DNA from: a virus
Lineage: Duplodnaviria > Heunggongvirae > Uroviricota > Caudoviricetes
Virus record (IMG/VR): IMGVR_UViG_3300033076_000972
Location: 43,329 to 107,328 of that record
DNA: 64,000 bases
Strand: one strand, 5' to 3'
In this document: in pieces, positions 15,407-61,239 of the stretch
Layout of the letters: each line of letters opens with the position of its first letter
Position numbering within the stretch: the stretch's first letter is position 1
Notes under the pieces: generated by a model
Told to the model about the DNA's origin: nothing
The model's input: only the letters and a program-made list of their open reading frames with translations
The model's database searches: none
Position numbers and translations under genes: made by a program

Positions 15407-15603
15407 TGGAGCCAAGTAAAATTAAAGAAGTTATTAGTGACCCAAAAAACCAGTCAAATACTGTTTTGATTGAAAGTTTGGATTATTTATCAAACGAACA
15501 TGAAGAATTAAAAAACACGATATTAAAATTGACTTACCATTTGGATGAAGTTGAATTTTCATATAATAAAATTTTGGAAGAATATAAAAATAGAACCAAA
15601 TGA
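15406..15603 (+). CDS. Small hypothetical protein
   Basis: TAATG overlap upstream and ATGA overlap downstream indicate translational coupling. Confidence 0.45.
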   Translation: MEPSKIKEVISDPKNQSNTVLIESLDYLSNEHEELKNTILKLTYHLDEVEFSYNKILEEYKNRTK

Positions 15604-17159
15604 TGGATGATGTAAAACACCACTCCTCGTTACCCAAAAAGTATACGCAAGTTGTTAACTACGGAAAAGTAGTTAGTAATAATGACCCTATGAATTTAGG
15701 TAGGATTAGGGTGGAACCTGTTGCGTGGCAAAACGAAGACCAATACAGTGCATTTAAAGGGACTTTTGGTCAACCACTAACTGAAAAAGATTTTTGGAAA
15801 ACTCAGGACCCTTTTGTTTTCATGCCGTTATTACCTATATTTGTTTACCAAGTACCAAAAGTTGGTGAATATGTTCACGTAATATATTATAACACTGAAT
15901 TACAAGATAGAAATAAATTTTATATTCAAGGTGTTTTTTCAAGTCCAAATAATACAAAATTTGAACCTTATGATTCTTCATTAGCATTTACAGCAAAAGG
16001 TGAAAGAAACGCTTTACCAAACAATATTAGAAATATTAATGGTGATTACATCAATGTTGAACAAGTTGGTCTTTATCCTGACGTAAATACAATTGGTTTA
16101 TTAGGTAGATATAATTCAGATATTTTACTTCCTGAAAATGGTGTTGTTTTAAGAGCAAATACTATTTTAGATGGTTCTGACCAATTAAACCCAACCTTCA
16201 ATAAAAAACATAGTTTTGTTTCTTTACAAAAATACCAATCCAAAAATGTGGACAATGGTAACACAACATATTTTGAAAACAACAAAGTTGTTCAAAGAGT
16301 TAAATACTTGGTCGAATACAATGTTTACGGTGGTTTGGGTACTTTGACAGGAAACTATTCAGCGTATGCGTATGTTTACAAAATTTCAGAGTATCAACCA
16401 GTATACACTAATAGTGTTGATAATACATGGTATGAATTTCCTGAGGTTTCTAAAATAGGTCCAATATATAAAGAAGATTACACATTTAAAAGTTTTGATG
16501 ATGTAGTAACAGGAATTAATAATTTAATTCAAAGAGTTAATAGTGGTAAATTTTTAGTTGGTAACACACTAATAAATGATGTTTTTCCTTTTGTTTTTCA
16601 ACCTGAAAAATCACTATTTGACAAATATAGTTTAAACACAATTACTGATGTTACCGAATCTATAAATGCACAAAGATTTATATCTGCAGTTCACTTAAAT
16701 AAAACCGATGCCAATGTAGGTTTGGGATTAGTTTCAAAACAAGGTGAATTAGGACCCCTAACCGAACTTAAATCATTTGATGTTCCAAATATAACAGTTG
16801 AGCCAAATCCAATAACTTATGGTATTAATGTTTCAGATATATCATTTTGGTTATCACATGATTCACAAATTCCCGGTACAAATAAAATTGATTTTGATAC
16901 CGCAAATTTTTCAGGAAACTCACTTGCGCAAGATTTTGTCGAAAACTCAATATTACCAAATACCAATTCTATGGTAAGGGGAGAACAACTTTTAAACCTT
17001 ATTGAATTAATTGTTAAATACTTAGTAACACACGTTCACCCATATCACGGGATGGGTCCAAATCCAGTTTCTTTGGATGGAACACAATCACAAAAAATAC
17101 TTGCAGAATTATTTAATGCAACTGAAACAGTTTTAAATAAAAACTTACGAATTAATTGA
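15600..17159 (+). CDS. Hypothetical structural protein
   Basis: 519-aa ORF. Confidence 0.45.
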   Translation: MMDDVKHHSSLPKKYTQVVNYGKVVSNNDPMNLGRIRVEPVAWQNEDQYSAFKGTFGQPLTEKDFWKTQDPFVFMPLLPIFVYQVPKVGEYVHVIYYNTELQDRNKFYIQGVFSSPNNTKFEPYDSSLAFTAKGERNALPNNIRNINGDYINVEQVGLYPDVNTIGLLGRYNSDILLPENGVVLRANTILDGSDQLNPTFNKKHSFVSLQKYQSKNVDNGNTTYFENNKVVQRVKYLVEYNVYGGLGTLTGNYSAYAYVYKISEYQPVYTNSVDNTWYEFPEVSKIGPIYKEDYTFKSFDDVVTGINNLIQRVNSGKFLVGNTLINDVFPFVFQPEKSLFDKYSLNTITDVTESINAQRFISAVHLNKTDANVGLGLVSKQGELGPLTELKSFDVPNITVEPNPITYGINVSDISFWLSHDSQIPGTNKIDFDTANFSGNSLAQDFVENSILPNTNSMVRGEQLLNLIELIVKYLVTHVHPYHGMGPNPVSLDGTQSQKILAELFNATETVLNKNLRIN

Positions 17160-25098: not shown

Positions 25099-25293
25099 AT
25101 GATAAAAATTATTATTCAAAAGGGTGAAAGTTTAGATAAAGCCTTAAAACGTTACAAGTACAAAGTCATCAAAACAAAACAAATTGAAGAACTTCGTGCA
25201 AGACAAGAGTTTGTTAAAAAAACAACTGTCAAAAGGGAACAAATGAAAAAGGCTAAATACAAACAACAAATAGCTCAAAGTAACATTGACTAA
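25099..25293 (+). CDS. rpsU: Ribosomal protein bS21
   Basis: MIKIIIQKGESLDKALKRYKYKVIKTKQIEELRARQEFVKKTTVKREQMKKAKYKQ matches the bS21 signature (KALKRFKRK…ELRxRQ(Y/F)(F/Y)xKP-like), has the right length (64 aa), and is Lys/Arg-rich. Confidence 0.8.
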   Translation: MIKIIIQKGESLDKALKRYKYKVIKTKQIEELRARQEFVKKTTVKREQMKKAKYKQQIAQSNID

Positions 25294-33933: not shown

Positions 33934-34434
33934 TTATGAGTTTAGTCCTCCAAATCCACCTAATTCTACCGCTCCTCCTTGTGGTGCAATTCCTCTTTGA
34001 TTTCCCATAAACATAGGGTTATTTGTGTTGAAAGTTACAACACTTCCATCCGTACTTCCTGTGCCTGGTACATAACCAACAATAGGTTGATTATAAATGT
34101 TTACAGGTGCAGTTCTTGGATAGTTTGAAGGTGTAGGAGTAATAGTAGGTGTTATTGTTGGTGTAACCGTAACAGTTGCAGTTGGAGTTATTGTTGGTGT
34201 TTGAGTTACTGTTGGTGTAACTGTTTTGGTTGGCGTAAGAGTTGGTGTAACAGTTCTAGTTGGTGTAATACTTGGTGTTACACTAATTGTAGGAGTTACA
34301 GTTGGTGTTGGTGTTTTTGTTGCGGTAACACTTGGGGTTGGCGTTTTTGTTGGCGTAATACTTGGTGTTACGGTAATTGTTGGGGTTACCGTAGGTGTTG
34401 GTGTAGGAGTAGGTGTCGGTGTTTCGGTCGCCAT
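33934..34434 (-). CDS. Pro/Thr-repeat (mucin-like linker) protein
   Basis: About 115 residues of (T/V/I/S)P T repeats, then a C-terminal folded region of about 50 aa. Confidence 0.45.
34140..34420. repeat. Degenerate 6-9-nt Pro/Thr codon repeats (GGTGTn / GTTGGn)
   Basis: Seen directly. Encodes TPTxTPT on the - strand. Confidence 0.7.
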
Positions 34435-35496: not shown

Positions 35497-35529
35497 AAAA
35501 AAACCCCTACTTTGTGTAGGGGTTTTTAT
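35497..35529. terminator. Bidirectional intrinsic terminator
   Basis: AAAAAAACCCCTACTTTGTGTAGGGGTTTTTATTT. Confidence 0.7.
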
Positions 35530-35988
35530 TTAGGATTTTATTTTATTTATTTTATCCCTTAATTTTATCGACTCTTCAAAATTTTGTTCTTTAATTGATT
35601 TGTCAAGTTGTGATTGTAATTCAGCAATCTTATCTCTATTAGATTCAATCTTTTGAATTTTATCTCTCAATTCACAAGCCTTTTCAAATTCCTGTGTCTC
35701 AATCGCATTTTCTAATTCTCGTCTTAATGAAGTTAATTCATTACTTTCTTTAGGTGATTTTGTTTTTGGTCCACCATAAGATGTTGTAGTAATAACGTAC
35801 CTAAACATTCCGTTTGGTGATGTGTACGTTTCTGTTTTCCATTCACCATTTTCATCTGAACCTTCTTTAATTTCAGATTTTTCATGTGAGATTGATGAAA
35901 ACTCTCGGTCTACTGAACCCAACATTTCATCCAATTCATCCATCATTTCTTTTAAACTTTTTCTGTTTCTTCCAAATAAATCAAACAT
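35530..35988 (-). CDS. Protein with two UVR motifs (UvrB/UvrC-type; also found in the ClpC M-domain)
   Basis: EFEKACELRDKIQKIE and a second EESIKLRDKINKI coiled-coil UVR-like motif. The gene is transcribed divergently from the Clp ATPase gene. Confidence 0.45.
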   Translation of the reverse strand: MFDLFGRNRKSLKEMMDELDEMLGSVDREFSSISHEKSEIKEGSDENGEWKTETYTSPNGMFRYVITTTSYGGPKTKSPKESNELTSLRRELENAIETQEFEKACELRDKIQKIESNRDKIAELQSQLDKSIKEQNFEESIKLRDKINKIKS

Positions 35989-36132
35989 ATTTTTTTTTCT
36001 TATTTTTTTAGTTTATCTTTGTAATTCCAATTATACAAAATTATGCCAAATAAACAATACTGACTTTTTGTCATATCAGTATGACATTTTGACATTATTG
36101 ATAAATTAGAATAAAAACTTATACTTTAACAT

Positions 36133-38217
36133 ATGATTGAATCACAAGACCAAAACGAAAAAATGGGTGGAAACCGAAAAGGTAAAACAGATACTATTAA
36201 CTCTAAAACACCGGTTTTAGATAATTTTTCTCGTGACCTTATTAAGTTAGCCAAAGAAGGTAAACTTGACCCTGTAATCGGTAGAGAGCATGAGATTGAA
36301 AGGTTGGCTCAAATTATATCAAGAAGAAAGAAAAACAACCCTATTCTTATAGGTGAACCTGGTTGTGGTAAAACCGCAATTGTTGAAGGTTTAGCAATGA
36401 AGATTTTTCAAGGGGATTGTCCACAAAATTTAATAGATAAACGAATTGTAAGTTTAGATATGACTTCTATTGTTGCTGGTACAAAATATCGTGGACAGTT
36501 TGAAGAACGTATTAAAGTTATTTTGGATGAATTAAGTGATAACCATGATGTTGTTGTGTTTATTGATGAAATACACACCATTATTGGTGCTGGTAATTCA
36601 TCAGGTTCATTAGACGCATCAAATATCTTCAAACCAGCTCTTGCACGTGGAGAACTCCAATGTATTGGTGCCACCACATTAGATGAATACCGTGAACATA
36701 TTGAAAAAGATGGTGCGTTAGAACGTCGTTTCCAAAAAGTTCACGTTGACCCAACATCAATTGAGGATACAATTAAGATTATGTACCGTGCTAAAGAAAA
36801 TTATGAAAAACATCATAAGGTTCATTTTAGTGATGAGGTAATCAAAACTTGTGTTATCTTGGCAGACCGTTATATTACTGACCGTGAGTTTCCAGATAAA
36901 GCAATTGACATTATGGATGAAGTTGGCGCAAGATGTCAAATCAATGTAACAGTTCCTGAAATTATTGAAAAACTTAAAGAAGAAGCGAACCAAATAAAAG
37001 AACGTAAAGTTGAAGTAGTTAGAAGTCAAAAATATGAAGAGGCTGCCGAACTACGTGATATGGAACGTAAAGTGTTGAGTCGTCTTCAAGAAGAAAAAGA
37101 AAAGTTTGAAAAGGAACGTTTAACCAATAAAAAAGAAGTTAGTGAGGAAATGGTTTATGAAGTTGTTGCTCAAATGACAAAAATTCCAATTTCAAAACTT
37201 TCACAATCTGAATCAGAATCATTGATTAATTTGGAAGAAAATTTAACAATGTCTGTTATTGGTCAAGAAGATGCTGTGTCTAAAATATCAAGAGCAATTC
37301 GTAGAAACCGTGTTGGAATTAAAGACCCAAACAAACCAATTGGTTCATTTATTTTCTTGGGTTCAACAGGTATTGGTAAAACACATTTGGCAAAACAATT
37401 GGCTAAAGAAATTTTTGGTAGTACAGATGCGTTGATTCGTGTTGACATGTCAGAATACCAAGAAAAGTTTACTATGACTAGATTGGTTGGTTCTCCTCCA
37501 GGTTACGTTGGTCACCAAGAAGGTGGACAATTAACTGAACAAGTTAAGAACAAACCTTATTGTGTTATTTTATTTGATGAAATTGAAAAGGCACACAAAG
37601 ATGTATATTCATTGTTACTTCAAGCAATGGATGAAGGTCACTTAACTGACGGACTTGGTAGAAAGATTAATTTCAAAAACACATTGATTATTATGACATC
37701 TAACATTGGCGCCAGAAAAGTTCAAGATTTTGGAACAGGTGTTGGTTTTGGTACTCGTTCTAAAAATGAAAAAGAAAGTGAGATTAAACAAATGATGGTT
37801 GAAGATGAACTTAAGAAATTTTTCCCACCTGAATTTTTAAACCGTGTTGATGATGTTATTTTCTTTAATCCACTTAAAGAAGAAGAAATTAAACAAATTG
37901 TTTCTTTGGAAATTTCAAAACTTACAACACGTTTGAAATCTATGAATTATGATATTGCAATTGGTGAGTCTTTAATCAAACAAATTTCTGATATTGGTTT
38001 TGATGAGAAATTTGGAGCTCGTCCAATCAAAAGAGCAATCCAAAATCAAATCGAAGATTTTATCTCTGATGAAATTTTAAAGAAGAATATTCTTCCTGAC
38101 ACAGTTTATTTCTTGGACTTTGTAGATGACAAGGTCCAAATAAATGAAAAAACATCAGAGTTACCTGATGTTTCAGAAAAACCAAAAAGGGGTAGAACAA
38201 AAAAAGGGGTCAATTAA
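36133..38217 (+). CDS. clpC: ClpC/ClpA-like two-ring AAA+ unfoldase that lacks the Clp_N domain and has a VGF ClpP-docking loop
   Basis: D1 carries GEPGCGKTA and [13 protein letters not shown] motif ([15 protein letters not shown]) sits in the linker. D2 carries [12 protein letters not shown] and [12 protein letters not shown]. The segment [10 protein letters not shown] contains the (I/V)GF tripeptide, and the sensor-2 GARP(I/L)KR is present. Confidence 0.9.
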
Positions 38218-38230
38218 GACCCCTTTTTTT
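38199..38230. terminator. Bidirectional intrinsic terminator
   Basis: AAAAAAAGGGGTCAATTAAGACCCCTTTTTTT. Confidence 0.7.
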
Positions 38231-39068
38231 AATCCCATAACATCCATCGTTCAGTTTTAGGTTTGTGTTCGTGGAATGTGTTACCCAAACTTTCAATCAT
38301 TTGTTTAACCATTTCAATTGCGTTGAACACATCTTCAATAACAACATACTCATTTGGTGTGTGGTAATTGTAATAACCACAAGATACATTCAAACAAGCA
38401 ATGTTAAATTTTGATGCAATTTGTGAAACGTCGGTGTACGGGTGTTTCATCAATTCATGTTTGTCTCCAAAATGTTCTTGAAGCAAAGGTCCAACCTTTT
38501 CAAAGAAAGGTGAATTACGGTCAAAAAGTTTTACACCCCAACAATATTCAGTTACCATCCAAGATTCGGGAGCATCAAACTGAATGCAGTAACCAACGTT
38601 AGAGAAAAACTCAGGACTTGCTTTTCTTGAACCATGACAACCTGTTTCTTCAGATACGAAGAAAGCGGCTTTAATTACTGGTAGTTGTTCAAGGAGATTC
38701 AAACATGAGTAGACACCACATTTGTCATCACCACCAATTCCTGTTGGGTGACCAGTCACAGCCTGGTAAGCCTTAAAAGAATCTTTTAGTTCCCCATAAA
38801 CATTTGGGAGTTGTTCTTCCTCTACAACCATTTCGGTAATCGAGTGTACGGTGTCCGTATGTGAAATTACACAAGGATAGATATCCGCATCACCTTTAGT
38901 GACATAAACGTTACCAAACTCATCGATTGTGTGGTTGTATCCTTTTTCAGTAAAATACTTGTCAAGATACTCAATCATAAGAGTTTCTTGATAAGTTTTA
39001 GTCGGAATAGAAAGGACTTCTTTTAGGTGTTGTATTTTTTCTGGTGTCATTTGACCACAAAGATACAA
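38229..39068 (-). CDS. M20/M28-like zinc metallopeptidase (short form)
   Basis: Metal-ligand motifs are ISHTDTVH (H-x-D), GIGGDDKCG (G-x-x-D-D-K-G) and SEETGCHGS (EE-G). Confidence 0.5.
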   Translation of the reverse strand: MYLCGQMTPEKIQHLKEVLSIPTKTYQETLMIEYLDKYFTEKGYNHTIDEFGNVYVTKGDADIYPCVISHTDTVHSITEMVVEEEQLPNVYGELKDSFKAYQAVTGHPTGIGGDDKCGVYSCLNLLEQLPVIKAAFFVSEETGCHGSRKASPEFFSNVGYCIQFDAPESWMVTEYCWGVKLFDRNSPFFEKVGPLLQEHFGDKHELMKHPYTDVSQIASKFNIACLNVSCGYYNYHTPNEYVVIEDVFNAIEMVKQMIESLGNTFHEHKPKTERWMLWD

Positions 39069-39076
39069 AAAATATT

Positions 39077-41227
39077 TTAAACTTCAAAAAGTTGATAATT
39101 TTTTAATAAAGAAATTAGTTGTTCAAAAGTTAATGTGTATTTATTAACCTTTGCTGAAAACCCATTAGTTTTTTCAATTTTGACAATTATTGAATTATCG
39201 GGCTCAACACCCAAAACTGTAATACCAGTATCCTTCAATGTTGGTATTTCTTTTTTAACATTAAATCCAATTTTATCAATAATATATGAAACAATTTTCT
39301 GATATTCTTCAATATCATCAAATACACCATCTTCTTCATCAATTAAATTTTCATATAATTCATCTAATAATTTTTCGGATTCAGAATTAAACCCTACGTT
39401 AAAAGTATCATAATCTCTATATTCATAGAAATTATCAAAGATGTCAGGTACTGAGATTTTTGAATCAATCGCTTCGGTAATAACGGCTCTAATTGATTTT
39501 TGTGGTGAACCATATTTTTCATAAAGTGATAACATATTGTCAACCGATGTATAATATTTACGAAAACAAACTTTGGGTTCAATATCAATTGGTTCTAAAG
39601 CATTACAATATTCATCATTAACCGCCGCCTCAATTCCAACTGTATATGCATCATCGGTAGCATATTGATATTCATCTGTCATCCCATCTTTGAACTTTTC
39701 ATGAGCACTTAAAACTTCAGCACATTTAGAATAATAATCACCCGTATAATTTTCCATCAATTCATCTTTTTGTAGAAATAATTGTGGCGAAATTATTTTG
39801 ATGATTTTATCCAATTTTTCTTTATTTTCTTCATTTAAAGATGATAAAACATAACCTTCCTTCCAATCTTCTTCTGCCATATAAGAATCCGTCCATTCAG
39901 TTTGTCTACCATAACTATTACCGGCAAATGATTCTAACTGAGATATTGTGTATTCGTACAGTTGGTGTTTAAACAATTTAAAATAATCTTCAGGGTCGAA
40001 AAGTAACATAACATTTCCGTCAACAATTTCAAAAGTTTCTTCATCACTTGTAATATTAAATGATGTGTCTGTTTTACCGTTTTTATAATTAATTAACGCT
40101 TGGTAGTCAGTACCACCTATGTTTAGAATATTACTTAATATTTCATCCATTCCTGGCATTGAGGCGTATAACACATCAAAATTTGAACGGTTGTCTTGTT
40201 GGTCCCAAACCTCAGGTTTTCCACTTTCAGGTATTCTAATTGCAAATTTTGAATTCCTTAAATTAGTTCCTTTTTTGTTTATCACATAAACAAATTTTGA
40301 ATTTCTGATATAGTCATCAAAATATCTTGAACTATCTCTTGATGCAACACACCATTTTGTTTCAGCACCATAAACACAAGACGCTTGGTGAGTCATTGGT
40401 TGAACAATCAAATATTTTTGGTCTTCATATAATTTTTTAGATTCATTTTTTGCTTTTTTAAGCTCGTCAGTTGTATATGTTCTTTTTTTGATTTGTCCAT
40501 AAAATTCTCTTATAGAATTTACGTCAGGATATGAATTGATGTCTTTTGGAGCTTTAACAATTTTATCGTATGACAAAGCAAAATTTTCCAAATCACCTCT
40601 TTTTAATCTCGCAGCCAATTCTTCGGTATCTTTTTTAGAAACTCTTCTATCGATAAAACTCATCATATCACTAACCTGAGCCATTGAATTTAAAAAACTA
40701 ATCCAATCAAGTTTTCCCAATTGTTTGCCTTGTGCTAATACCCATGGCAAATATTTTTTTGTTGGACTATTGTCACGAGCCCAAAGAGAGTCAAATATTT
40801 CTTTTTTTAAATTTTCATCATCAACATCCTTTCCCCAATCAATATCCAACTTTTTAAATTCATCAAACAAATCAGATTGTTTGTCTTCTTTAATTAACCC
40901 TTCAAAAAGTGTTCTAAGGTCTTCAGCAGGACCATTAAGGATTACGTCAATATAATGTGATGTTTCTTCAGGTTGGTCTTCTACACTACCCACAAATTCA
41001 GTTTTATCGTTAAACTCACAGTAGATACCACCATCATAAGTAATTGTCAAAGTAAAAGTTATTCCATCTCCTTCAATAACATATTGTTCAGTTCCAACAT
41101 CCATTGACTCATCATACACACATGAAATTCTTTCCGGTACAAAATTAAATTTTTCCAAAATTTCTTGTACTTTTGATATATATGAAAAATATGAGGCGGG
41201 TTGTCCGAAATAACTTATTTGTTTCAT
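39077..41227 (-). CDS. Large hypothetical protein (716 aa)
   Basis: ORF with no motif I could assign. Confidence 0.5.
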   Translation of the reverse strand: MKQISYFGQPASYFSYISKVQEILEKFNFVPERISCVYDESMDVGTEQYVIEGDGITFTLTITYDGGIYCEFNDKTEFVGSVEDQPEETSHYIDVILNGPAEDLRTLFEGLIKEDKQSDLFDEFKKLDIDWGKDVDDENLKKEIFDSLWARDNSPTKKYLPWVLAQGKQLGKLDWISFLNSMAQVSDMMSFIDRRVSKKDTEELAARLKRGDLENFALSYDKIVKAPKDINSYPDVNSIREFYGQIKKRTYTTDELKKAKNESKKLYEDQKYLIVQPMTHQASCVYGAETKWCVASRDSSRYFDDYIRNSKFVYVINKKGTNLRNSKFAIRIPESGKPEVWDQQDNRSNFDVLYASMPGMDEILSNILNIGGTDYQALINYKNGKTDTSFNITSDEETFEIVDGNVMLLFDPEDYFKLFKHQLYEYTISQLESFAGNSYGRQTEWTDSYMAEEDWKEGYVLSSLNEENKEKLDKIIKIISPQLFLQKDELMENYTGDYYSKCAEVLSAHEKFKDGMTDEYQYATDDAYTVGIEAAVNDEYCNALEPIDIEPKVCFRKYYTSVDNMLSLYEKYGSPQKSIRAVITEAIDSKISVPDIFDNFYEYRDYDTFNVGFNSESEKLLDELYENLIDEEDGVFDDIEEYQKIVSYIIDKIGFNVKKEIPTLKDTGITVLGVEPDNSIIVKIEKTNGFSAKVNKYTLTFEQLISLLKNYQLFEV

Positions 41228-41246
41228 TATAAATAAATACTTTGAT

Positions 41247-41277
41247 TTGGCAGTTTGAGATAATATTTATATCTTTG
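41247..41277 (+). promoter_or_regulatory. Bacteroidetes-type sigma-A promoter (TTG-N20-TATCTTTG) upstream of the tmRNA
   Basis: TTG at 41247-41249 and TATCTTTG at 41270-41277 match the Bacteroidetes -33/-7 consensus TTG / TAnnTTTG. Confidence 0.5.
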
Positions 41278-41381
41278 TATAACAAATCAGGAATAACCGT
41301 AAAAATGTACCTGAAGTGAGGATACCAAAGAGTATCACACCAAACGGTTGGGAGTTTCTGAATTATGTTCTTTGAAAATAT

Positions 41382-41765
41382 GGGGATGAATGGAATCGAC
41401 AGGTATTGTTGATTGATGGATGCACGTATGAGCTGAGTTAACTCATTAAAAACTGATTTAAAAAATTAGACGGCAACGTTTTGAACAAAATGGCAGCTAT
41501 CGGTTTAATCCGTGAAGATGCTTCTGTATTAGCTTAATTGTTAGTACAACTCAGGTCGGGGGACATATAACCTAGGAACAGAAGTCTTGAGAGATGTGGT
41601 TTCTATCTTAAAAGAAACAAGTGGAGGATTAGTTCTCAGTAAACCGAACCACTATAAAATAAGGGAATTGTGAAGTTCGGAACATTAGCAAATGTTGACC
41701 TAAACGTGTAGTATCTATTGGTTAAGGTAGACTGGACGAGGGTTCGATACCCTCCATCTCCACCA
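41382..41765 (+). ncRNA. ssrA: tmRNA (SsrA), phage-encoded, with the CCA encoded in the DNA
   Basis: The 5' end GGGGATGAATGGAATCGACAGG aligns with E. coli GGGGCUGAUUCUGGAUUCGACGGG. The 3' end GGACGAGGGTTCGATACCCTCCATCTCCACCA aligns with GGACGCGGGUUCAACUCCCGCCAGCUCCACCA. A 7-bp acceptor stem (GGGGATG/CATCTCC, one G-U pair) and a T-arm GAGGG-TTCGATA-CCCTC are present. Upstream of the tag, AAAAAUUAGAC is followed by the resume codon GGC at 41472, giving the tag GNVLNKMAAIGLIREDASVLA and a TAA at 41535. Confidence 0.8.
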
Positions 41766-41771
41766 AATTAA

Positions 41772-41800
41772 AGTGGTCAAATTTGACCACTTTTTTTTTT
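41772..41800 (+). terminator. Intrinsic terminator after the tmRNA
   Basis: AGTGGTCAAATTTGACCACT hairpin followed by T10. Confidence 0.75.
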
Positions 41801-41856
41801 GTAAATTAGAAAAATTGTCGTATCTTTGTATTGTTAATCACTACCACTATGACAAC
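41791..41856 (+). repeat. Direct repeat copy 1 (T-run + promoter + 5' gene start), about 65 nt
   Basis: Near-identical to 42331-42395, with three mismatches. Confidence 0.8.
41799..41828 (+). promoter_or_regulatory. Promoter TTG-N19-TATCTTTG (duplicated cassette, copy 1)
   Basis: TTG at 41799 and TATCTTTG at 41821-41828. The ATG at 41849 is about 14 nt from the predicted TSS. Confidence 0.55.
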
Positions 41857-42311: not shown

Positions 42312-42339
42312 AATTTCCCTCTTCGGAGGGATTTTTTTT
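42312..42339 (+). terminator. Intrinsic terminator
   Basis: CCCTCTTCGGAGGG hairpin followed by T8. Confidence 0.75.
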
Positions 42340-42395
42340 GTAAATTAGAAAAATTGCCGTATCTTTGTATTGTTAATCACTACCACTATGACAAA
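42331..42395 (+). repeat. Direct repeat copy 2
   Basis: Near-identical to 41791-41856. Confidence 0.8.
42338..42367 (+). promoter_or_regulatory. Promoter TTG-N19-TATCTTTG (duplicated cassette, copy 2)
   Basis: TTG at 42338 and TATCTTTG at 42360-42367. Confidence 0.55.
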
Positions 42396-43193: not shown

Positions 43194-43703
43194 ATGGAAA
43201 AAGTATTAGTATTAAACAGCGATTACACACCCTTGAACGTAACAACAATGCGTAGAGGATTTGTATTGGTTGATAAGGGTAAAGCTGAAGTATTGAAAAA
43301 AGATGAAAATCCGATTGTTACTACTATTGGTAATTTTGTAAGACCAATCATCATTAGATTACTCAGTTATATCAGAATTAAGAAAAACGCCAAAGACATC
43401 AAGATTTCTCGTTCAAGAGTTTATCAAAGGGACGGACATGCTTGTGTATATTGTGGAGGAAATAAGAAATTGACAATTGACCATGTAATACCAAAATCTC
43501 GTGGTGGTGATAATACTTGGGAAAACATGGTCACTTGTTGTTTTGATTGTAACTCAAGGAAGGGAAGTAAGACACCTGAAGAAGCTGGTCTTAAATTTAG
43601 GGTTCGTCCTTATAGACCTTCAGTGTTTTCTGAACTTGTTGCGGGTCGTGCTGCACATATTTGGGAAGAATTCCAACACGATTTATTTGGTTTTTCAAAT
43701 TAA
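43194..43703 (+). CDS. Free-standing HNH endonuclease
   Basis: CVYCGGNKKLTIDHVIPKSRGGDNTWENMVTCCFDCNSRKG is an HNH motif with a Cys4 zinc site. The first ATG is at 43194 (the ORF track starts at TTG 43164). Confidence 0.75.
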   Translation: MEKVLVLNSDYTPLNVTTMRRGFVLVDKGKAEVLKKDENPIVTTIGNFVRPIIIRLLSYIRIKKNAKDIKISRSRVYQRDGHACVYCGGNKKLTIDHVIPKSRGGDNTWENMVTCCFDCNSRKGSKTPEEAGLKFRVRPYRPSVFSELVAGRAAHIWEEFQHDLFGFSN

Positions 43704-43716: not shown

Positions 43717-43781
43717 TATAAGAAGTAAAAATGTTCTTTGATTTAATGCTCGGGTGATGGAATGGTAGACATGAAAGACTT

Positions 43782-44474
43782 AAACGTATTTTGTATACCT
43801 AATTGATATTTATCAATATGGGAAATGAAAAATATACAAAAGAGTTTTTGGAATCTATCGTTAAAGAATGTGGGTCAATAAGACAAGTTTTAATAAAACT
43901 TGGACTTAAAGAAGCTGGTGGTAATTATCATAATATTAAAACAAGAATAAAATTGTTTGATATTGATATTACCCATTTTCACGGAATGGTTTGGAATAAA
44001 GGTAAAAAATGGTCAAAAACCAAAGATTTATCTTCTAAATTAGTTGAACACTCAACATATTCGTCAGGTCTTCCAATTAATACATATGTTTTGAAAAATC
44101 AATTGTTAAAAATTGGTATTAAAACCCACATATGTGAAAATTGTGAATCTATTGAATGGTTGGGTGTTGAAATTCCTTTAGAATTACACCACATAAATGG
44201 TAATCGGTTTGATAATCGTATTGAAAATATACAACTATTATGTCCGAATTGTCATGCTTTAACTGAAAATTATAGAGCCAAAAATATGAGTGCTAGATGA
44301 GAAATTGTCTAAGTAGAACTCCGTAAATTCGGTGAACCCTGTAAAATGGGAATACCGAGCCAAGCCGAAAGGAAGGTGTAGAGACTAGACACGGAGAACC
44401 TAAGTCAGTTGATATGGTTAAGGTATAGTCCAGACCACAAACTATAAATAGGTAACGAAAGTTATAGTGGTAAG
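43782..44474 (+). mobile_element. Group I intron (carries an HNH ORF) in the tRNA-Leu anticodon loop
   Basis: The conserved core is present: an R-like GAGACTAGACACGG (44381-44394) and S element AAGGTATAGTCC (44420-44431) form P7 (GACTA/TAGTC). A U precedes the 5' splice site and the intron ends in a G (44474). This is the same insertion site as the cyanobacterial and plastid tRNA-Leu(UAA) intron. Confidence 0.7.
43818..44300 (+). CDS. Intron-encoded HNH homing endonuclease
   Basis: CENCESIEWLGVEIPLELHHINGNRFDNRIENIQLLCPNCHALTE is an HNH motif with CxxC…CxxC. The ORF lies entirely in the 5' part of the intron, before the ribozyme core. First ATG at 43818. Confidence 0.7.
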   Translation: MGNEKYTKEFLESIVKECGSIRQVLIKLGLKEAGGNYHNIKTRIKLFDIDITHFHGMVWNKGKKWSKTKDLSSKLVEHSTYSSGLPINTYVLKNQLLKIGIKTHICENCESIEWLGVEIPLELHHINGNRFDNRIENIQLLCPNCHALTENYRAKNMSAR

Positions 44475-44526
44475 AAAATCTTTTGGGTAGTAATACCCGT
44501 GCGGGTTCGAGTCCCGCCCCGAGTAC

Positions 44527-53803: not shown

Positions 53804-56800
53804 ATGAAGAAGTTATTGCTTTTTATGATGTTCTTGTTCAGTTTCTTGACTGTACAAGCAACCCACATGATGGGTGCAGATGTTTCCTACAAATGTTTGG
53901 GAAATGGAAAATATAAAATTATTGCTAAAGTTTACCGAGATTGTAGGGGTGTGTCTATGGGTACACCATCATTTGGTGCTTATGCAGGGTTAAACGGTGG
54001 AAATGGTTGTGGTAACTATACACTAAGTGGATTATCAAGGGTTTCAATTAAAGATGTTACCACAAGATGCTCAACTACTAGTAACCCGTGTGGTTCACCT
54101 AACTCAGCGTTTGCTAATAAAGGTGTTGAGGAACACACATTTGAAGCTACGATTGATTTTAATACGTCACCATTAAATAATTTTGTTAATAAATCAACAT
54201 GTTGTGAGGTTACATTTTATGTAAATGAATGTTGTAGAAATGGTGCAATTAGTACAGGTCAAGCCTCTCAAAATTTTTATGCAACTGCAATGATTAATAT
54301 TTGTAACCTTCAGAAAATGAAGGACAAATGTAACAGTTCACCACAACTATCAAACCCACCTATTGCCTTTCTATGTTGTAATCAGCCTTGGTATTATAAT
54401 AATGGTGCCATAGATACAATAGATTATGATTCAATTTCATATAAATTAGTCAATGGACTTCAAGGTATTCCAAATAGTTCGGTATCATACGCCTCACCAT
54501 TTACCGCAAAAGTTCCCATGACACCGTATTGTGTACCACCTACAACCATAAACTGTGTGCCAAACCCAAAAACAAATCCACCGAGAGGTTTTTATTTTGA
54601 CACCACAAATGGTGATGTTATTACGACACCAACTAAATGTGATGAATCTGCCGTTATATGTGTTGAACAGACTGAATGGAGAAAAGATACGTCAGGTGTA
54701 TGGCGTGTAATTGGTAGAACAAGACGTGACATGCAAGTTTGGGTTAGGGATGATTGTGGTTATAATAAAGCACCAACTCTTGGTCCAAAGTTTACATATC
54801 AAGTTTGTGAGGGTGAAACATTAAAATTCAAAGTGGAATCTGACGATGAAACATTTACACCGTATCAAACAACTCCTGACACAACAACAATGAAGTGGAA
54901 TGCGGGTATTCCCGGTGCAAAGTTTACATTAGCAAATAAAAGTGATTGGCCTGAAAAACGTAAGTCATATGCTTGGTTTGAATGGACACCTCCGATTGGT
55001 TCAGCTTCTGATATATCATATTCATTTACAGTTACAGTTAGTGACCAACACTGTGAACCACCAGCAACATCAATTCGTTCATTCAAGATTAAGGTTAATC
55101 CAAAACCTAAATCAAAACGTAGATATACACAATTAAAGTGTGGTAGGTTTGCCATGGAAGCATATGAAATATATGCAGCATCAAGTTATTCTTGGAGTGT
55201 TAGAGATACCTTAGCGAAAGAATTATTTTACTCTTCAAAGAAAACAGATACCATGAACTATTACTATGAAGGTAAGTACATTATAGTTCATAAATTAACA
55301 AGTGCTCAGTCATGTGTAACAATTTATAGTGATACTGTTTATCTAACACAACCACCAAAAGTAATATTGGCCGATGCTGATAGTTTTGCTTGTTATGGAA
55401 CAACTTTCAATCTCAAAGCAAAAGTTATTGCGGGTAAACCTACGTTGAAATATAAGTGGAACAACGGTGATACTTTGGACTATACCACAATCAAAAACTT
55501 CAAAAAAGATTCAACATTGATGTTGGAAGTAACGGATGGTGATGGTTGTAAATTCCGTGATACAACAAAAACATTTGTTAAACCATTACCTGTTGTTAGT
55601 TTGGGTTCAGATAAAGTTATCTGTACATATGAAACTAACACATTTGATGGTCAAAACAACGATACCGTAAAATACTTGTGGAGTACTGGTGATACTACCC
55701 GTTACATGACAACTAATCTCAAGGGAATCTATTGGGTTAAAATTACTGACACCACATATATGTGTGTTAAATACGACACGGCAATATTAGTTGTGAATGA
55801 TACTGTAATATCCAATGCGGGACCAAACCAAGCAATTTGTGATAAAGACACATTCATATTAAAGGCAACACACAATCCGTTTATTTTAACTCCAACATAT
55901 ACTTGGGGTGGATTGGGTAATTTGTCAACCTATAAGTTGAAATCTGATATAACAAAATCAGCTTATATGTTTACATTGAAGACGGTGATTACTCAAAATG
56001 GTCACACCTGTGAAGACATGGATACTATTTTTGTTAGAGTTAAACCATTACCAAAAATTAGTTGGAATCCAAAACCATTAAAACCACAATGTTATTCTTA
56101 TGGTGATATTTGGATGGAACCATTCTTGGTTAAACCTCATAACTTTGGAACATATGAAATATGGAGCGGAAGCAAAAATAAAATAGGAAACATTGTTACG
56201 AATCCATCTAACGGACGATTCCTGTTCAACACCCAATCATTGGACAACAGCAAACTACAGGGAGGTAATAACTACACCACCAAAATGTATGTTAAGTTTA
56301 ATGATACAAATGGTTGTTATAATATAGATTCAACAACCCAAGTAATTTATGGTACTCCATTAATTCAGTTAAAAAGTGCAACTGTTTGTCAGAACGCTAA
56401 ATTTTTAATGATGGACAATGTGAGAGTAAGACCCGCAACCAAAAACGGTGTAAGTATGTTATGGCAGGTAGTGAGAGGACCTGCAGGTGTTGACACTTCC
56501 AAGTTATTGATGAATATCTCAACAAATTCAACACCAAACATAATGTTTTGGTTTGGCACTGGCAATTCAAATTACTATAAGGGAAAATATACATTCAGAC
56601 TTACTGTTAAAGACGTACTCACTGGTTGTCAAAGCACAGATACTGTTGACATAAACGTTGCTGGTGAACCCGTTGTTTCATTAAAACCTCTACCAATATT
56701 CTGTGAGAACTCAGGTGTGAATATCAATTTGTTTGATTATGTTGATGTCAGTTATGTTACGGGTGGAATTGTAACAAAAAAACTGTCTATTCAAGATGTT

Positions 56801-58345
56801 AACGGTGATAAAAATGACCCAAGAGTGTTGACTGATTTATCCTCAGGATTTTTCAGAACAAGTCTTGGTGTGGGAACATATAAGATTAAAGTTCTTAGTA
56901 CAATATTGGACCCTAATTATTTAGTAACATGCTCAAGAGTAGATAGTTTCGATGTTGTTATCAGTTATAAACCTGACCTCAGAAAAATAGATATGGGTTT
57001 TTGTTCTACTCGTCCTTGGCCATTTGATTTGAAAACAGTAATTACATCTGAAAGTTGGGGTGTTGTAAAAATCACTTATCCTGATGGGGAATTTTTTACA
57101 CCCACTCCAAAGGCAAAAGGGTATATTGGTGGATTTAATAATCCCTATAAATTCATGATGGTAGGTGAAAGTCAATATGGTTGTAAAGATACTGAAATAC
57201 TAAAACTCACTGTGATGAATCAACCTGAGATTAAATTTGTTCCACCATTTGTAAGTTGTGGTAAAGATACTTGGACTCTAAAATTGGATACTGCGAATAT
57301 TGACCCAGCAGTTAAATTTAGATGGGTTGTTAATACAGGTCTTTATGATACTTTAACACCTCCTGGTGGAGAAGTGATTGGTGGAAAATGGGGGTTTGGT
57401 AAAAAACAATATATTCCAGATAACAAAGATACCTCAAGGGGTTACTTCACGGTAAAATTCAAATCATGGAATGCACCTCTTTGTGCTAAAGTTATTGACT
57501 CTGTTAAAGTTTTAATAACACCTTATCCTGAACCAGACTTTATAACAACAAATGGGTGTCAACCACATTCTATAATGTTCACACCAACAGAAAAAAGAGG
57601 TATCAAATCGATGACTTATTCTTGGGGAATAAATGATACATTTTCACAAGGTGGTAATTCAAGTTGGTCAAAGACATTTACTGACGTTGGATATTACAGA
57701 ACATCTTTAAGTGCTGTCAATACAACATTTACTCCCGACAAAATATGTGGAACTGTGATTACTAAAACATTTGAGGTATATCCAAAACCATACGCAATAT
57801 TTAGTACTGACCCATTATATAAAACAACAATTGCTTTACCTAGATTTAAGACGATAAACTCATCAAGTGTTAGTCAAAATCCATTTATAACTAAATTGGA
57901 TTACAGTTGGAGTTGGGGAAAAACATTCAAAACGGGTACTGACTCTACCAAGTCACCAAACATTATATTTGGTAAAGATACAGGACTATATTGGATTAAG
58001 TTAGTAACGACTACAGATAAAGGGTGTAAAGATTCTACCATGACTCGTGTTGTTATTGGACCTGATATTATAATATTTGTCCCTGACGCATTCACACCTG
58101 ATAATGCTGGTCCAAATGAAAACAATACATTTATTCCAAAAGTTACTAATCATAAAACATTTTATATGGGTGTTTACAACCGCTGGGGTGAAAAATTGTA
58201 TGAAACAACTGACCTAACAAAAGGTTGGGATGGTAATTATTTAGGAAAATCAGCACAACAAGGGGTTTATGTATATAAAATTATTGTAACTTCAATGGAA
58301 GATAAGGTTTTTCAATATAACGGAACTTTTACATTACTTAGATAA
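53804..58345 (+). CDS. Giant secreted adhesin-like protein with a T9SS type-B (gliding-motility-associated) C-terminal domain
   Basis: Signal peptide MKKLLLFMMFLFSFLTVQA, then 1513 aa that are Cys/Thr/Asn-rich. The C-terminal FVPDAFTPDNAGPNENNTFIP…GVYNRWGEKLYETTDLTKGWDGNYLGKSAQQGVYVYKI matches the SprB-type CTD consensus (fsPNGDGiND…FNRWGekvf…gWDG…GvYyY). Confidence 0.8.
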   Translation: MKKLLLFMMFLFSFLTVQATHMMGADVSYKCLGNGKYKIIAKVYRDCRGVSMGTPSFGAYAGLNGGNGCGNYTLSGLSRVSIKDVTTRCSTTSNPCGSPNSAFANKGVEEHTFEATIDFNTSPLNNFVNKSTCCEVTFYVNECCRNGAISTGQASQNFYATAMINICNLQKMKDKCNSSPQLSNPPIAFLCCNQPWYYNNGAIDTIDYDSISYKLVNGLQGIPNSSVSYASPFTAKVPMTPYCVPPTTINCVPNPKTNPPRGFYFDTTNGDVITTPTKCDESAVICVEQTEWRKDTSGVWRVIGRTRRDMQVWVRDDCGYNKAPTLGPKFTYQVCEGETLKFKVESDDETFTPYQTTPDTTTMKWNAGIPGAKFTLANKSDWPEKRKSYAWFEWTPPIGSASDISYSFTVTVSDQHCEPPATSIRSFKIKVNPKPKSKRRYTQLKCGRFAMEAYEIYAASSYSWSVRDTLAKELFYSSKKTDTMNYYYEGKYIIVHKLTSAQSCVTIYSDTVYLTQPPKVILADADSFACYGTTFNLKAKVIAGKPTLKYKWNNGDTLDYTTIKNFKKDSTLMLEVTDGDGCKFRDTTKTFVKPLPVVSLGSDKVICTYETNTFDGQNNDTVKYLWSTGDTTRYMTTNLKGIYWVKITDTTYMCVKYDTAILVVNDTVISNAGPNQAICDKDTFILKATHNPFILTPTYTWGGLGNLSTYKLKSDITKSAYMFTLKTVITQNGHTCEDMDTIFVRVKPLPKISWNPKPLKPQCYSYGDIWMEPFLVKPHNFGTYEIWSGSKNKIGNIVTNPSNGRFLFNTQSLDNSKLQGGNNYTTKMYVKFNDTNGCYNIDSTTQVIYGTPLIQLKSATVCQNAKFLMMDNVRVRPATKNGVSMLWQVVRGPAGVDTSKLLMNISTNSTPNIMFWFGTGNSNYYKGKYTFRLTVKDVLTGCQSTDTVDINVAGEPVVSLKPLPIFCENSGVNINLFDYVDVSYVTGGIVTKKLSIQDVNGDKNDPRVLTDLSSGFFRTSLGVGTYKIKVLSTILDPNYLVTCSRVDSFDVVISYKPDLRKIDMGFCSTRPWPFDLKTVITSESWGVVKITYPDGEFFTPTPKAKGYIGGFNNPYKFMMVGESQYGCKDTEILKLTVMNQPEIKFVPPFVSCGKDTWTLKLDTANIDPAVKFRWVVNTGLYDTLTPPGGEVIGGKWGFGKKQYIPDNKDTSRGYFTVKFKSWNAPLCAKVIDSVKVLITPYPEPDFITTNGCQPHSIMFTPTEKRGIKSMTYSWGINDTFSQGGNSSWSKTFTDVGYYRTSLSAVNTTFTPDKICGTVITKTFEVYPKPYAIFSTDPLYKTTIALPRFKTINSSSVSQNPFITKLDYSWSWGKTFKTGTDSTKSPNIIFGKDTGLYWIKLVTTTDKGCKDSTMTRVVIGPDIIIFVPDAFTPDNAGPNENNTFIPKVTNHKTFYMGVYNRWGEKLYETTDLTKGWDGNYLGKSAQQGVYVYKIIVTSMEDKVFQYNGTFTLLR

Positions 58346-59282: not shown

Positions 59283-60317
59283 GTGTTACCTAAACTGAAC
59301 AAATATCATAATGATGGACTGTTATATAAACAGACACACCCAACATTACCGTTAACTATATGGAACTACACACCTGCGGTTCAATACGGTGAAAAATGGG
59401 ATGAAGTTACCTTGGCTTGTAGAGGTTTAGTTACTGACAACGAAGGTAATATTGTTGCAAGACCATTTAAAAAATTCTTCAATATAGAGGAAAACAAACA
59501 CACACCTACCCAAGATTTTGAAGTTTTTGAAAAAATGGATGGTTCTTTGGGTATTATATTCAAATACAATGGTGAAGTGATTTACGCAACTCGTGGTTCA
59601 TTCACATCTGACCAGGCGAAATGGATGGAAAACTACTGTAAAGAATATAACTTCAAAGATATATTAGTTGAAGGATTTACCTACCTATTTGAAATTATCT
59701 ATCCTGAAAACCGTATTGTTGTTGACTATGAAGGTCAAGAAAGATTGGTTTTACTCGGTATAATTAAAACTGAAACAGGTGAAGAAATACCGTATGATGA
59801 TATTGTGGTTGCGCCTTGGGATATTGTAGAAAAATATGATGGTATTCGGGATTATTCCGAATTAAAGAATAAAGTTTTACAAAATCATGAGGGATTTGTA
59901 GTTCGTTTTTCTAATGGAGACCGAATGAAAATCAAAGGTGAGGAATATCTACGTCTACATAAAATAATGACCAATATATCAACTACTGGTGTATGGGAAC
60001 ACTTATCAAAAGGTGGTGATATAAATGATTTACTCAAAGACGTACCTGATGAATTTTACAAGAAAGTAAAAGAATATGCGGATTTACTTAAGTATGGTTA
60101 TTATCAAGTTTCTGAATATTGTGGAAAAGCTCACGACTATTTCCGATATGGAAAGTATAATGATAGAGAAGTAGAACCAACTAAAAAACAATTTGCAGAC
60201 CACGTTATGAATTATGGTCATCCACCATATAGAGCAGTAATGTTTGCAATGTGGGATAAAAAACCTTATGATAAATTGATATGGAACATATTAAAACCGG
60301 AATTTAAAAAACTATAA
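59283..60317 (+). CDS. ATP-dependent RNA ligase, Rnl1 family (T4 RnlA-like)
   Basis: Motif I FEKMDGSLG (K-x-DGSL), motif IV HEGFVVRF and motif V MKIKGEEY. The N-terminal stretch ACRGLV…RPFKKFFNIEEN parallels T4 Rnl1 ECRGIMF…RPMEKFFNLNEN. The only in-frame start is GTG. Confidence 0.75.
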   Translation: MLPKLNKYHNDGLLYKQTHPTLPLTIWNYTPAVQYGEKWDEVTLACRGLVTDNEGNIVARPFKKFFNIEENKHTPTQDFEVFEKMDGSLGIIFKYNGEVIYATRGSFTSDQAKWMENYCKEYNFKDILVEGFTYLFEIIYPENRIVVDYEGQERLVLLGIIKTETGEEIPYDDIVVAPWDIVEKYDGIRDYSELKNKVLQNHEGFVVRFSNGDRMKIKGEEYLRLHKIMTNISTTGVWEHLSKGGDINDLLKDVPDEFYKKVKEYADLLKYGYYQVSEYCGKAHDYFRYGKYNDREVEPTKKQFADHVMNYGHPPYRAVMFAMWDKKPYDKLIWNILKPEFKKL

Positions 60318-60981: not shown

Positions 60982-61239
60982 ATGTTAAAGAAATTTTATA
61001 ACCTCGAGTTTGGATTACAGATGCTAATTACAGCATTAGTACTGTTTTTCAGTAATCAACTGACAACTTATACATTAAGTATGTGTAACCTACCAAGTAC
61101 CATTATTGTAAATCTTGGATTAATTCTAACTTTTGTAATATTTTTAATTCAAACAATTGCAATCTTTGTTGGAATCAAAGCAATTATTAATTACGTAAAA
61201 CAAACAAAAACAAAAAATAACGATGAGCAATCTAACTAA
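60982..61239 (+). CDS. Small membrane protein (two TM helices)
   Basis: Hydrophobic segments ITALVLFFS and LILTFVIFLIQTIAIFVGI. Confidence 0.4.
   Translation: MLKKFYNLEFGLQMLITALVLFFSNQLTTYTLSMCNLPSTIIVNLGLILTFVIFLIQTIAIFVGIKAIINYVKQTKTKNNDEQSN

Follow-up and report, generated by a model that had tools for sequence, protein, structure and literature searches.

Introduction

In bacterial cells, the ATPase ClpC is normally held off by its N-domain and its M-domain and is switched on only by adaptors. The N-domain of the cellular protein binds adaptors and phospho-arginine and helps to lock the resting state, and drugs or mutations that break the control of ClpC kill bacteria. Here we describe a viral ClpC-like ATPase that lacks this N-domain, together with the genes around it and a linked transfer-messenger RNA (tmRNA). 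The genes lie in a stretch of 64,000 nucleotides (nt) of Caudoviricetes DNA, positions 43,329 to 107,328 of the IMG/VR record IMGVR_UViG_3300033076_000972. This whole stretch is referred to as the window, and all coordinates are those of the window unless a relative is named.

The consequences of removing the N-domain are known from engineered variants of Staphylococcus aureus ClpC. Deletion of the N-domain raises the ATPase activity and yields no proteolysis, which additionally requires that the contact between M-domains be broken by the substitution F436A (PMC12583610). Residue F436 makes the M-domain/M-domain contact of the resting state. The doubly altered protein, delta-N ClpC-F436A, needs no adaptor to degrade GFP-SsrA, and its toxicity exceeds that of ClpC-F436A (PMC12583610). 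The AGF tripeptide at the tip of the P-loop of S. aureus ClpC docks into ClpP, and the G672D/F673D changes abolish ClpP binding (bioRxiv 10.1101/2025.06.06.658286). Tagging of proteins by phage tmRNAs for protein recycling has been proposed earlier (PMC9004378; PMC7162821).

The region examined here is best read as a conserved stretch of auxiliary genes acting on protein quality control. A preliminary description, made from the sequence alone, had listed five features in it: a protein with UVR motifs, a ClpC-like ATPase, an M20-like peptidase, a protein of 716 amino acids and a tmRNA. All five were recovered at the same coordinates from the open reading frames (ORFs), Pfam and Rfam. As an association of genes, the core of ClpC and a putative cofactor, to which a virus-specific tmRNA is linked, is well founded. 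Inclusion of the M20 peptidase or the 716-residue protein in one functional unit with ClpC is not supported.

An N-less ClpC-like ATPase of viruses

The ATPase gene (36133-38217, + strand) encodes an Hsp100 protein of 694 amino acids, which was characterized by Pfam, by alignment with S. aureus ClpC and by a survey of homologues. Pfam recognized the domains AAA, AAA_lid_9, AAA_2 and ClpB_D2-small and found no Clp_N in the 694 residues. Both AAA+ rings, D1 and D2, are intact, with the Walker A and B motifs and the pore loops present, and the closest solved structure is S. aureus ClpC, matched over its residues 154-813 (E 1e-222). The M-domain is short and of the ClpC type (motif 1 only). It aligns without a gap through residues 411-476 of S. 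aureus ClpC, with the tip residue Y301 (nt 37033-37035) aligned with F436. In the P-loop, V537-G538-F539 (nt 37741-37749) aligns with AGF 671-673 of the S. aureus protein. The C-terminal tail of the phage ATPase is basic. An in-frame stop codon stands 3 nt before the start of the ORF, and the loss of the N-domain is therefore real and no artefact of the chosen start codon. The preliminary description had assigned to this protein both AAA+ rings, a UVR-containing middle domain, a VGF loop and a missing Clp_N, and each of these assignments held.

The homologue survey covered the 120 closest proteins in a metagenome collection, most of which are 650-694 residues long. Clp_N is absent from the precomputed Pfam lists of all 120, and in 118 of them just 42-45 residues precede the DPVIGR motif. 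Between 118 and 120 of the proteins have intact Walker motifs and pore loops, 119 keep the tripeptide [I/V/L]GF, and 114 have Y or F at the tip of the M-domain. The same N-less ClpC occurs in the huge phages LR745206, LR756502 and LR756508, at 50-59% identity. In the phage collection, the best ClpC matches are huge phages at 57-59% identity; many further "phage" matches, host-like ClpC or ClpB on contaminated or short records, were ignored. Judged by these sequences, ClpC proteins that lack the N-domain and carry an [I/V/L]GF loop form a viral lineage that is widespread.

Identity with the ClpB disaggregase was considered and rejected. The ATPase scored 827 bits against the ClpB equivalog TIGR03346, below the cut-off of 1232, it possesses a P-loop, and ClpB chains align with it only in two separate stretches. 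No NCBIfam equivalog cut-off was reached by the protein. At two of the huge-phage loci, the region 2-6 kb upstream of the N-less ClpC contains a GOLLD RNA (RF02032, 275-287 bits; L001 9538-9943 of LR745206 and L002 6064-6470 of LR756502) and tRNA genes.

Possible partners of the ATPase were searched for by tblastn with ClpP, SmpB, ClpS and MecA queries; distant or unrelated analogues would escape such a search. ClpP (E. coli query) was not found in the window or in the relatives' flanks, which leaves host ClpP as the only visible partner. The MecA (Bacillus subtilis) and ClpS (E. coli) queries gave matches at chance level only in the window and the loci. The conservation of the docking tripeptide argues for ClpP binding, and on these sequences the phage ClpC probably docks on ClpP.

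A tmRNA with a virus-specific tag

The tmRNA (41382-41765, + strand) is a one-piece molecule with the G3:U pair and an encoded CCA end, and it reads GGGGAUG...CAUCUCCACCA. It matches the Rfam model RF00023 over its full length (model positions 1-374) with 100.8 bits, compared to a gathering score of 47. ARAGORN misses this tmRNA at its default setting; with a relaxed threshold, it finds the tmRNA and selects the wrong tag. The tmRNA starts 3.16 kb past the ClpC stop codon. The preliminary description had placed both the peptidase and the tmRNA within 3 kb of ClpC, which is correct for the peptidase and slightly too short for the tmRNA.

The tag reading frame, GNVLNKMAAIGLIREDASVLA followed by a TAA stop (41472-41537, + strand), was determined by comparison with eight relatives. 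It has 21 codons, from GGC at 41472 to the TAA at 41535-41537. The alignment of the eight relatives fixes this frame, as there are always 21 codons, the changes include synonymous ones and the stop is kept; GLIR, for example, is encoded by GGT TTA ATC CGT or by GGT CTT ATC CGC. The consensus of the tag is G[NE][VT][LI]xK[ML]xA[IVC]GLIR plus seven further residues, the last an alanine, and the C-terminus is non-polar, V(L/V)A or TVA. The conservation of the peptide extends well past the generic hydrophobic end.

A degenerate DNA pattern of the tag had no match in 185,579 species genomes (one per bacterial or archaeal species) and was present in 78 viral contigs. Because there are no cellular matches and the conservation is at the level of the peptide, the tag is specific to a viral family and constrained as a peptide. 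SmpB was not found in the window or the loci by tblastn with the E. coli protein, and it is presumed to be supplied by the host. The phage ClpC may read the tag, which we regard as possible and rather doubtful.

Some further features of the tmRNA vary among relatives. A leader of about 100 nt separates the promoter box from the 5' end of the tmRNA (window 41280-41381; L006 15150-15251). Among close relatives this leader comes in two versions of unrelated sequence, and L009 has almost none of it. A riboswitch in the leader is not supported, since the L006 leader had no Rfam match at E up to 1 and the window and L006 leaders fold no better than shuffled sequences (z about -1.4). In L006 (tmRNA at 15252-15644), L009, L016 and L017, the T-arm of the tmRNA is without the usual GGTTCGA loop (CGCAGGGCAGTACTGCG), the CCA is not encoded, and the Rfam scores of these altered tmRNAs are lower (53-65 bits). 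The canonical T-loop is kept in the tmRNAs of the window and of L013.

UVR152 and the gene divergent from ClpC

Divergent from ClpC lies the gene of UVR152 (35530-35988, - strand), a protein of 152 amino acids with two UVR motifs (about nt 35644-35742 and 35536-35634). Pfam UVR (PF02151) matched it in two stretches with 46.4 bits against a cut-off of 21.5, in agreement with the two motifs that had been noticed earlier. The AlphaFold2 model, of moderate confidence, consists of an N-terminal helix, a three-stranded sheet and three C-terminal helices, in which the two UVR hairpins have a long central helix in common. Residues F101 and F137 fall at the position of the M-domain tip F436 of S. aureus ClpC. 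At the level of the motif, UVR152 matches the M-domain of ClpC and the C-terminus of McsA. Its best NCBIfam match is McsA (NF053706), which reached 33 bits against a cut-off of 210 and covered model positions 138-174 of 182, the UVR part. Identity with McsA was rejected because this score is far under the cut-off and UVR152 has a single cysteine and lacks the zinc-finger cysteines.

UVR152 had no match in the phage collection. Its homologues are confined to one phage family, and all have about 150 residues and the same architecture. In every T4-like relative initially examined, UVR152 is found divergently beside ClpC. When 25 loci were compared, the divergent slot was occupied by UVR152 in 16 loci, by an Hsp20 gene (Pfam HSP20, 50-55 bits) in six, and by neither in three, in which the slot holds only an uncharacterized helical protein of about 100 residues. 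UVR152 and Hsp20 are not homologous, as the probability from the profile comparison was 0.5%. On a different virus-like contig, the gene for P0290, a distant full-length member of the UVR152 family, overlaps with the beginning of an Hsp70 gene (785 bits).

Three independent lines, namely the divergent pairing across a palindromic operator, the exchange with Hsp20 and the homologue that overlaps Hsp70, suggest that UVR152 is associated with chaperones. From the sequences, we lean slightly towards UVR152 being a chaperone cofactor, and it is a candidate for a new cofactor family.

The helical protein of about 100 residues (...YLELR..F.E.G.....LE...), which shares or replaces the UVR152 slot, has no Pfam match. 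It lies between KTSC and ClpC in L034, L040, L105, L055, L070 and L079. The chaperone cluster of the P0290 type (L027 122-3222 and a 10.4-kb JGI contig) is a second cluster that is built differently. In this Hsp70 cluster, a protein of 345 amino acids with the motif HEFNH (HExxH) precedes the UVR152-family gene, and an FKBP-type isomerase is encoded a few kb downstream on the contig.

Transcription units, operator and promoter box

The ORF layout and the terminator-like hairpins divide the five features into four transcription units on both strands. A hairpin of 12 pairs with a T run, resembling an intrinsic terminator (35499-35527, - strand), is located directly 3' of UVR152, which would therefore be monocistronic. 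UVR152 also has a promoter-like box of its own. The unk716-M20 transcript, named for the 716-residue protein (unk716) and the peptidase, has its terminator-like hairpin (38149-38174, - strand) inside the 3' end of the ClpC coding sequence, and a strong terminator-like hairpin directly follows the tmRNA (41770-41793, + strand).

The control region between UVR152 and ClpC (35989-36132) contains a conserved TGCCAA box and two operator-like 13-bp sites of the type TGACA-N3-TGTCA (36061-36073 and 36082-36094). Two sites of this type occur between UVR152 and ClpC in all relatives, and the palindromes are also kept where they precede Hsp20 genes. In the relatives' intergenic regions there are 3-5 copies of the pentamer per 142-295 bp, compared to 2.5 per kb in the window. 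Within the window alone, the frequency of the palindrome is not above chance, and its weight therefore comes solely from its conservation in relatives.

An exact 10-mer, TATCTTTGTA, stands ahead of ClpC (36014-36023, + strand) and, as an identical promoter-like box, ahead of the tmRNA (41270-41279, + strand). In the window there are seven copies compared to an expected 0.40. All are on the + strand, at 36014, 41270, 41821, 42360, 43709, 51780 and 59271, and each coincides with or shortly precedes the start of a gene or RNA on this strand. From its sequence and placement, TATCTTTGTA is probably a -7 promoter box of the Bacteroidota type (TAnnTTTG) that marks one temporal class. Since the box is common to both, ClpC and the tmRNA probably share a promoter class. 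No such box was found ahead of the unk716-M20 operon.

Two other promoter types were considered. A scan for sigma-70 promoters gave fewer sites than shuffled sequences and was replaced by the TAnnTTTG box. The count of the T4-late-type TATAAATA in the window is not above chance. Downstream of the tmRNA, 41795-41850 and 42333-42390 (+ strand) are nearly identical in terminator, promoter box and first codons. The two copies precede an ORF of 159 amino acids and a DUF6011 gene, and the pair resembles a regulatory cassette that has been duplicated.

The M20 peptidase and the 716-residue protein

The peptidase gene (38229-39068, - strand) encodes an M20-type metallopeptidase of 279 amino acids. The match to Pfam Peptidase_M20 (PF01546) passed narrowly, with 29.1 bits against a cut-off of 24.6, and PHROG 4191, "peptidase", matched with an E value of 3e-42. 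The motifs SHTDTV, GGDDKCG, SEETG and YHTPNE align with catalytic-domain motifs of peptidase T (3gb0). Residues 12-166 and 215-261 match residues 9-168 and 326-371 of PepT, and the insert of about 150 residues that forms the lid/dimerization domain is missing. The M20 assignment of the preliminary description is therefore right for the catalytic domain, and the protein is lid-less.

The product of the gene at 39077-41227 (- strand), unk716, is a multi-domain protein of 716 amino acids that belongs to no recognized family; neither Pfam nor NCBIfam has a family for it, and at the sequence level it is restricted to one phage family. Only 8 nt separate the gene from the M20 gene, which is downstream on this strand. 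The two therefore probably form one operon, which converges on ClpC. No sign ties the 716-residue protein to proteolysis. It is quite unlikely that the M20 peptidase or the 716-residue protein belongs to the same pathway as ClpC.

Conservation of the locus among relatives

In IMG/VR relatives whose ClpC is 63-94% identical, the full stretch from a 411-residue protein to an HNH gene is kept. This collinearity reaches far past the block, so co-location alone is weak evidence. In distant relatives (ClpC about 71%), the M20 gene is inverted and there are insertions after ClpC; these relatives still hold UVR152, ClpC, M20, an unk716-like gene and the tmRNA.

An independent search for loci was performed with the tag pattern instead of ClpC. 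Loci among the 78 viral contigs were taken as informative when at least 6.5 kb lay upstream of the tmRNA. All 26 informative loci, some of which are near-duplicates, have the N-less ClpC upstream of the tmRNA and in the same orientation, at a distance of 1.9-6.5 kb (median 2.4 kb). M20 and an unk716-like gene lie between ClpC and the tmRNA in most of the 26.

The preliminary description had viewed the five genes as one unit for targeted proteolysis. A single unit did not stand up, as there are four transcription units on both strands and the M20 gene and the gene of the 716-residue protein show no link to the pathway. What survives is the core of ClpC and its putative cofactor and the link to the tmRNA, seen in 26 of 26 loci and in the shared box. 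The check it had proposed, whether relatives keep the genes together, came out positive for one syntenic phage family and negative for the huge phages, and UVR152 is missing from nine of 25 loci.

Proposed mechanism and alternative explanations

The explanation that we favor overall, and hold tentatively, is a chaperone core of ClpC and its cofactor with a linked tmRNA, which do not form one operon. The phage ClpC would most likely be hexameric and docked on host ClpP, and the loss of the N-domain would place the phage protease outside the control of host adaptors. Because the aromatic residue of the M-domain tip is kept, the phage ClpC would probably still need a breaker of M-domain contacts, for which UVR152 is a candidate. 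UVR152 would most likely act as a cofactor that either caps the M-domain to release the resting state or delivers substrates, and a small heat-shock protein may stand in for it in some relatives. A natural delta-N ClpC that keeps its tip aromatic, next to a free protein with two M-domain-like hairpins, makes a plausible switch. The tmRNA, presumably made from the same promoter type, would rescue stalled ribosomes with host SmpB and add the virus-specific tag of 21 residues, which the pore of the N-less ClpC may recognize. A tag that the pore recognizes could plausibly serve as the substrate signal. The lid-less M20 peptidase and the 716-residue protein would form a separate operon on the other strand, outside this pathway. 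In its fullest form, the scheme would be a private tag-and-destroy pathway, in which a virus-only degron on stalled chains is taken up by the adaptor-free pore of the N-less ClpC and passed to host ClpP, with UVR152 (the small heat-shock protein in relatives) as an M-domain mimic that switches the ATPase to the active hexamer. That all of these steps hold together is unlikely.

Several observations weigh against the favored reading, and some of them point instead to independent auxiliary genes that are neighbors by inheritance only. Without any hand-over of substrates, the tmRNA would then just free stalled ribosomes alongside bS21 and the tRNA genes; this is the less likely explanation of the two, and a serious one. 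The four transcription units on both strands, each with a terminator, agree with it, as does the presence of bS21 and tRNA in the window. One phage family supplies all of the positive synteny, and the collinearity of its genomes extends far outside the block, from the portal to the HNH gene. Near the ClpC genes of LR745206, LR756502 and LR756508, no homologue of nine tested window neighbors was found within 12 kb, and no tmRNA was listed in the Rfam scan of these three loci. tmRNAs occur in about 2.3% of phage genomes, in phages of many kinds (PMC9004378), and the M20 family is common in phages, with 331 records that include Klebsiella, Bacillus, Pectobacterium and Cellulophaga phages. When the M20 and ClpC lists were compared by the first word of the organism name, seven of the eleven comparable names differed: Listeria and Staphylococcus were confined to the ClpC list, and Pectobacterium, Bacillus, Cellulophaga, Brevibacillus and Shigella to the M20 list. 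The four names common to both lists were Escherichia, Klebsiella, Vibrio and Enterococcus, and many records of the ClpC list are host-like or short contigs. Other points concern the individual steps. The delta-N ClpC of S. aureus is proteolytically inactive by itself (PMC12583610). The likeness of UVR152 to M-domains is at the motif level only (E 0.02-0.4), and a Foldseek comparison of its model with the PDB, a check that the preliminary description had suggested, gave no significant structural match, with nothing below E 0.3. Its absence from nine of 25 relatives, three of which are also without Hsp20, means that the cofactor is dispensable or replaceable. The negative results for ClpP and SmpB cover the window and the loci, and a phage copy elsewhere in the genome is possible. 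Mere inheritance is, however, at odds with the distant relatives, in which the right flank is rearranged by insertions and the inversion of M20 and yet ClpC, M20, the unk716-like gene and the tmRNA are together in 26 of 26 loci. It also does not account for a slot beside ClpC that is taken by chaperone-type genes in different lineages, for the exact promoter-like box common to ClpC and the tmRNA, or for a tag peptide that is conserved far beyond its hydrophobic end.

The presence of Hsp20 in the divergent slot of six of the 25 loci and the coupling of a UVR152 homologue to Hsp70 would also suit a ClpP-free role, in which the phage ClpC, as an unfoldase or disaggregase with UVR152, Hsp20 or Hsp70-type partners, remodels phage proteins (e.g., in head assembly) or keeps the stressed host proteome soluble. 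The ClpC gene adjoins the morphogenesis module (terminase, portal, prohead protease, capsid), and related large freshwater phages were reported to carry DnaK, DnaJ and Hsp20 (PMC12619734). These points have to be set against the [IVL]GF at the tip of the P-loop, which is kept in 119 of 120 homologues. We know of no role for the P-loop besides ClpP docking, and the disaggregase ClpB does not have it. A purely ClpP-free ATPase is accordingly improbable, and a chaperone role of this kind and docking on ClpP are not mutually exclusive. Finally, UVR152 might be aimed at the host ClpC, as a free M-domain look-alike that caps the host M-domains and either blocks activation by adaptors or forces uncontrolled activation, analogous to SPO1 Gp53. 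Its UVR motifs resemble the ClpC M-domain down to the tip phenylalanine, it has its own promoter-like box and terminator, and there is a precedent for a phage adaptor-like protein that acts on host ClpC (PMC6873191). Such a target is nevertheless very improbable, given that UVR152 is kept strictly beside the phage ClpC across the shared operator and that its replacement is Hsp20 and not an inhibitor-like gene; the huge phages also show that an N-less ClpC can occur without UVR152.

The favored core of ClpC, cofactor and linked tmRNA matters for several reasons. A viral lineage that is without the N-domain and keeps the ClpP-docking loop is a natural test of ClpC control, and it bears on what a virus may gain from uncontrolled or re-targeted proteolysis. 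If the reading of UVR152 holds, its family would be a new type of Hsp100/Hsp70 cofactor. The virus-only tag, whose peptide is conserved, opens the old question of why there are tmRNAs in phages to direct testing. If the private pathway were real, it and the phage bS21 would jointly allow the phage to redirect protein synthesis as well as protein breakdown in the infected cell. These phages are abundant in lakes, and the pathway could matter for the lysis of Bacteroidota and for recycling.

The source phage and other features of the window

We assign the window to a T4-like phage of freshwater Bacteroidota that encodes bS21. Among the genes of the window are those for a T4-type capsid protein, a portal protein, a terminase and a prohead protease. 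A PKD/CHU_C protein of 1513 amino acids (53804-58345, + strand) carries the CHU_C domain, a type IX secretion signal, which points to Bacteroidota as the host. The gene for ribosomal protein bS21 (25099-25293, + strand; Pfam 40.3 bits) is on the strand opposite to the T4-like structural module, the layout described for bS21-encoding freshwater Bacteroidetes phages (PMC9723584). The window also fits the large freshwater "moraphages" (PMC12619734). No close genome was found in the phage collection by nucleotide or protein searches.

Other genes in the window include a Pro/Thr-repeat protein (33934-34434, - strand), a T4 Rnl1-type RNA ligase (59283-60317, + strand) and a Band_7/SPFH protein (61223-62077, + strand). 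A tRNA-Leu(UAA)-like gene (43747-44526, + strand) is interrupted in its anticodon loop by an insertion of about 691 nt and is overlooked by default tRNA scans. The insertion contains an HNH endonuclease ORF (43803-44300) and a group I intron core (RF00028, 40.2 bits, E 1.3e-8), whose score is below the gathering score of 50. In the relative L006, the same tRNA is uninterrupted and measures 86 nt.

Comparison with known systems

The phage ATPase resembles the cellular ClpC proteins of S. aureus, B. subtilis and M. tuberculosis (ClpC1) in having two AAA+ rings, a short UVR-like M-domain with an aromatic tip and a P-loop tripeptide. In contrast to these, it lacks the Clp_N domain of about 150 residues, which binds MecA, the phospho-arginine made by McsB and cyclic peptides and which anchors the resting state. 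It is also encoded by a virus, has a basic C-terminal tail and scores below every NCBIfam equivalog cut-off. Its domain content is equal to that of the engineered S. aureus delta-N ClpC and delta-N ClpC-F436A (Jenne et al., EMBO J 2025, PMC12583610), and unlike delta-N ClpC-F436A, it retains an aromatic residue (Y or F) at the tip.

UVR152 is comparable to McsA, the activator of the arginine kinase McsB, and to the chloroplast ClpF, which are small proteins with UVR motifs that work with ClpC-type machines. McsA has zinc-finger cysteines that UVR152 lacks, while UVR152 has two UVR motifs and an N-terminal helix-plus-sheet module of its own. ClpF carries a YccV domain, and UVR152 does not. SPO1 Gp53 (PMC6873191), with which UVR152 was compared by description only, is likewise a small phage protein that modulates a ClpC protease. 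In contrast to the situation described here, in which the ClpC is that of the phage and has no adaptor-binding N-domain, Gp53 targets the ClpC of the host, whose ATPase it stimulates as the host adaptors do.

The tmRNA is similar to other phage tmRNAs (those of mycobacteriophages, of huge phages and of the pelagiphage/methylophage Melnitz) in being a complete tmRNA of a lytic phage with an early-type promoter. It differs from them as a one-piece molecule whose 21-residue tag is conserved as a peptide throughout the family and absent from the species genomes, and which is always linked to the N-less ClpC. The T4-like structural genes, the opposite-strand bS21 and the freshwater contigs of 100-300 kb are shared with the bS21-encoding freshwater Bacteroidetes phages (Chen et al. 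2022, PMC9723584) and with the "moraphages" (Arch Virol 2025, PMC12619734). In both of these studies a Clp ATPase or protease, a putative peptidase and chaperones are among the genes. In the text searched in the two papers these appear as annotations only, with no mention of a missing N-domain, a P-loop, a UVR partner or its exchange with Hsp20, a tmRNA (0 occurrences of the word in either) or a tag. ClpC and tmRNA themselves are known kinds. What is new here is the viral lineage of N-less ClpC, the virus-only tag, the linkage of tmRNA to ClpC and the exchange of UVR152 and Hsp20 in the slot beside it.

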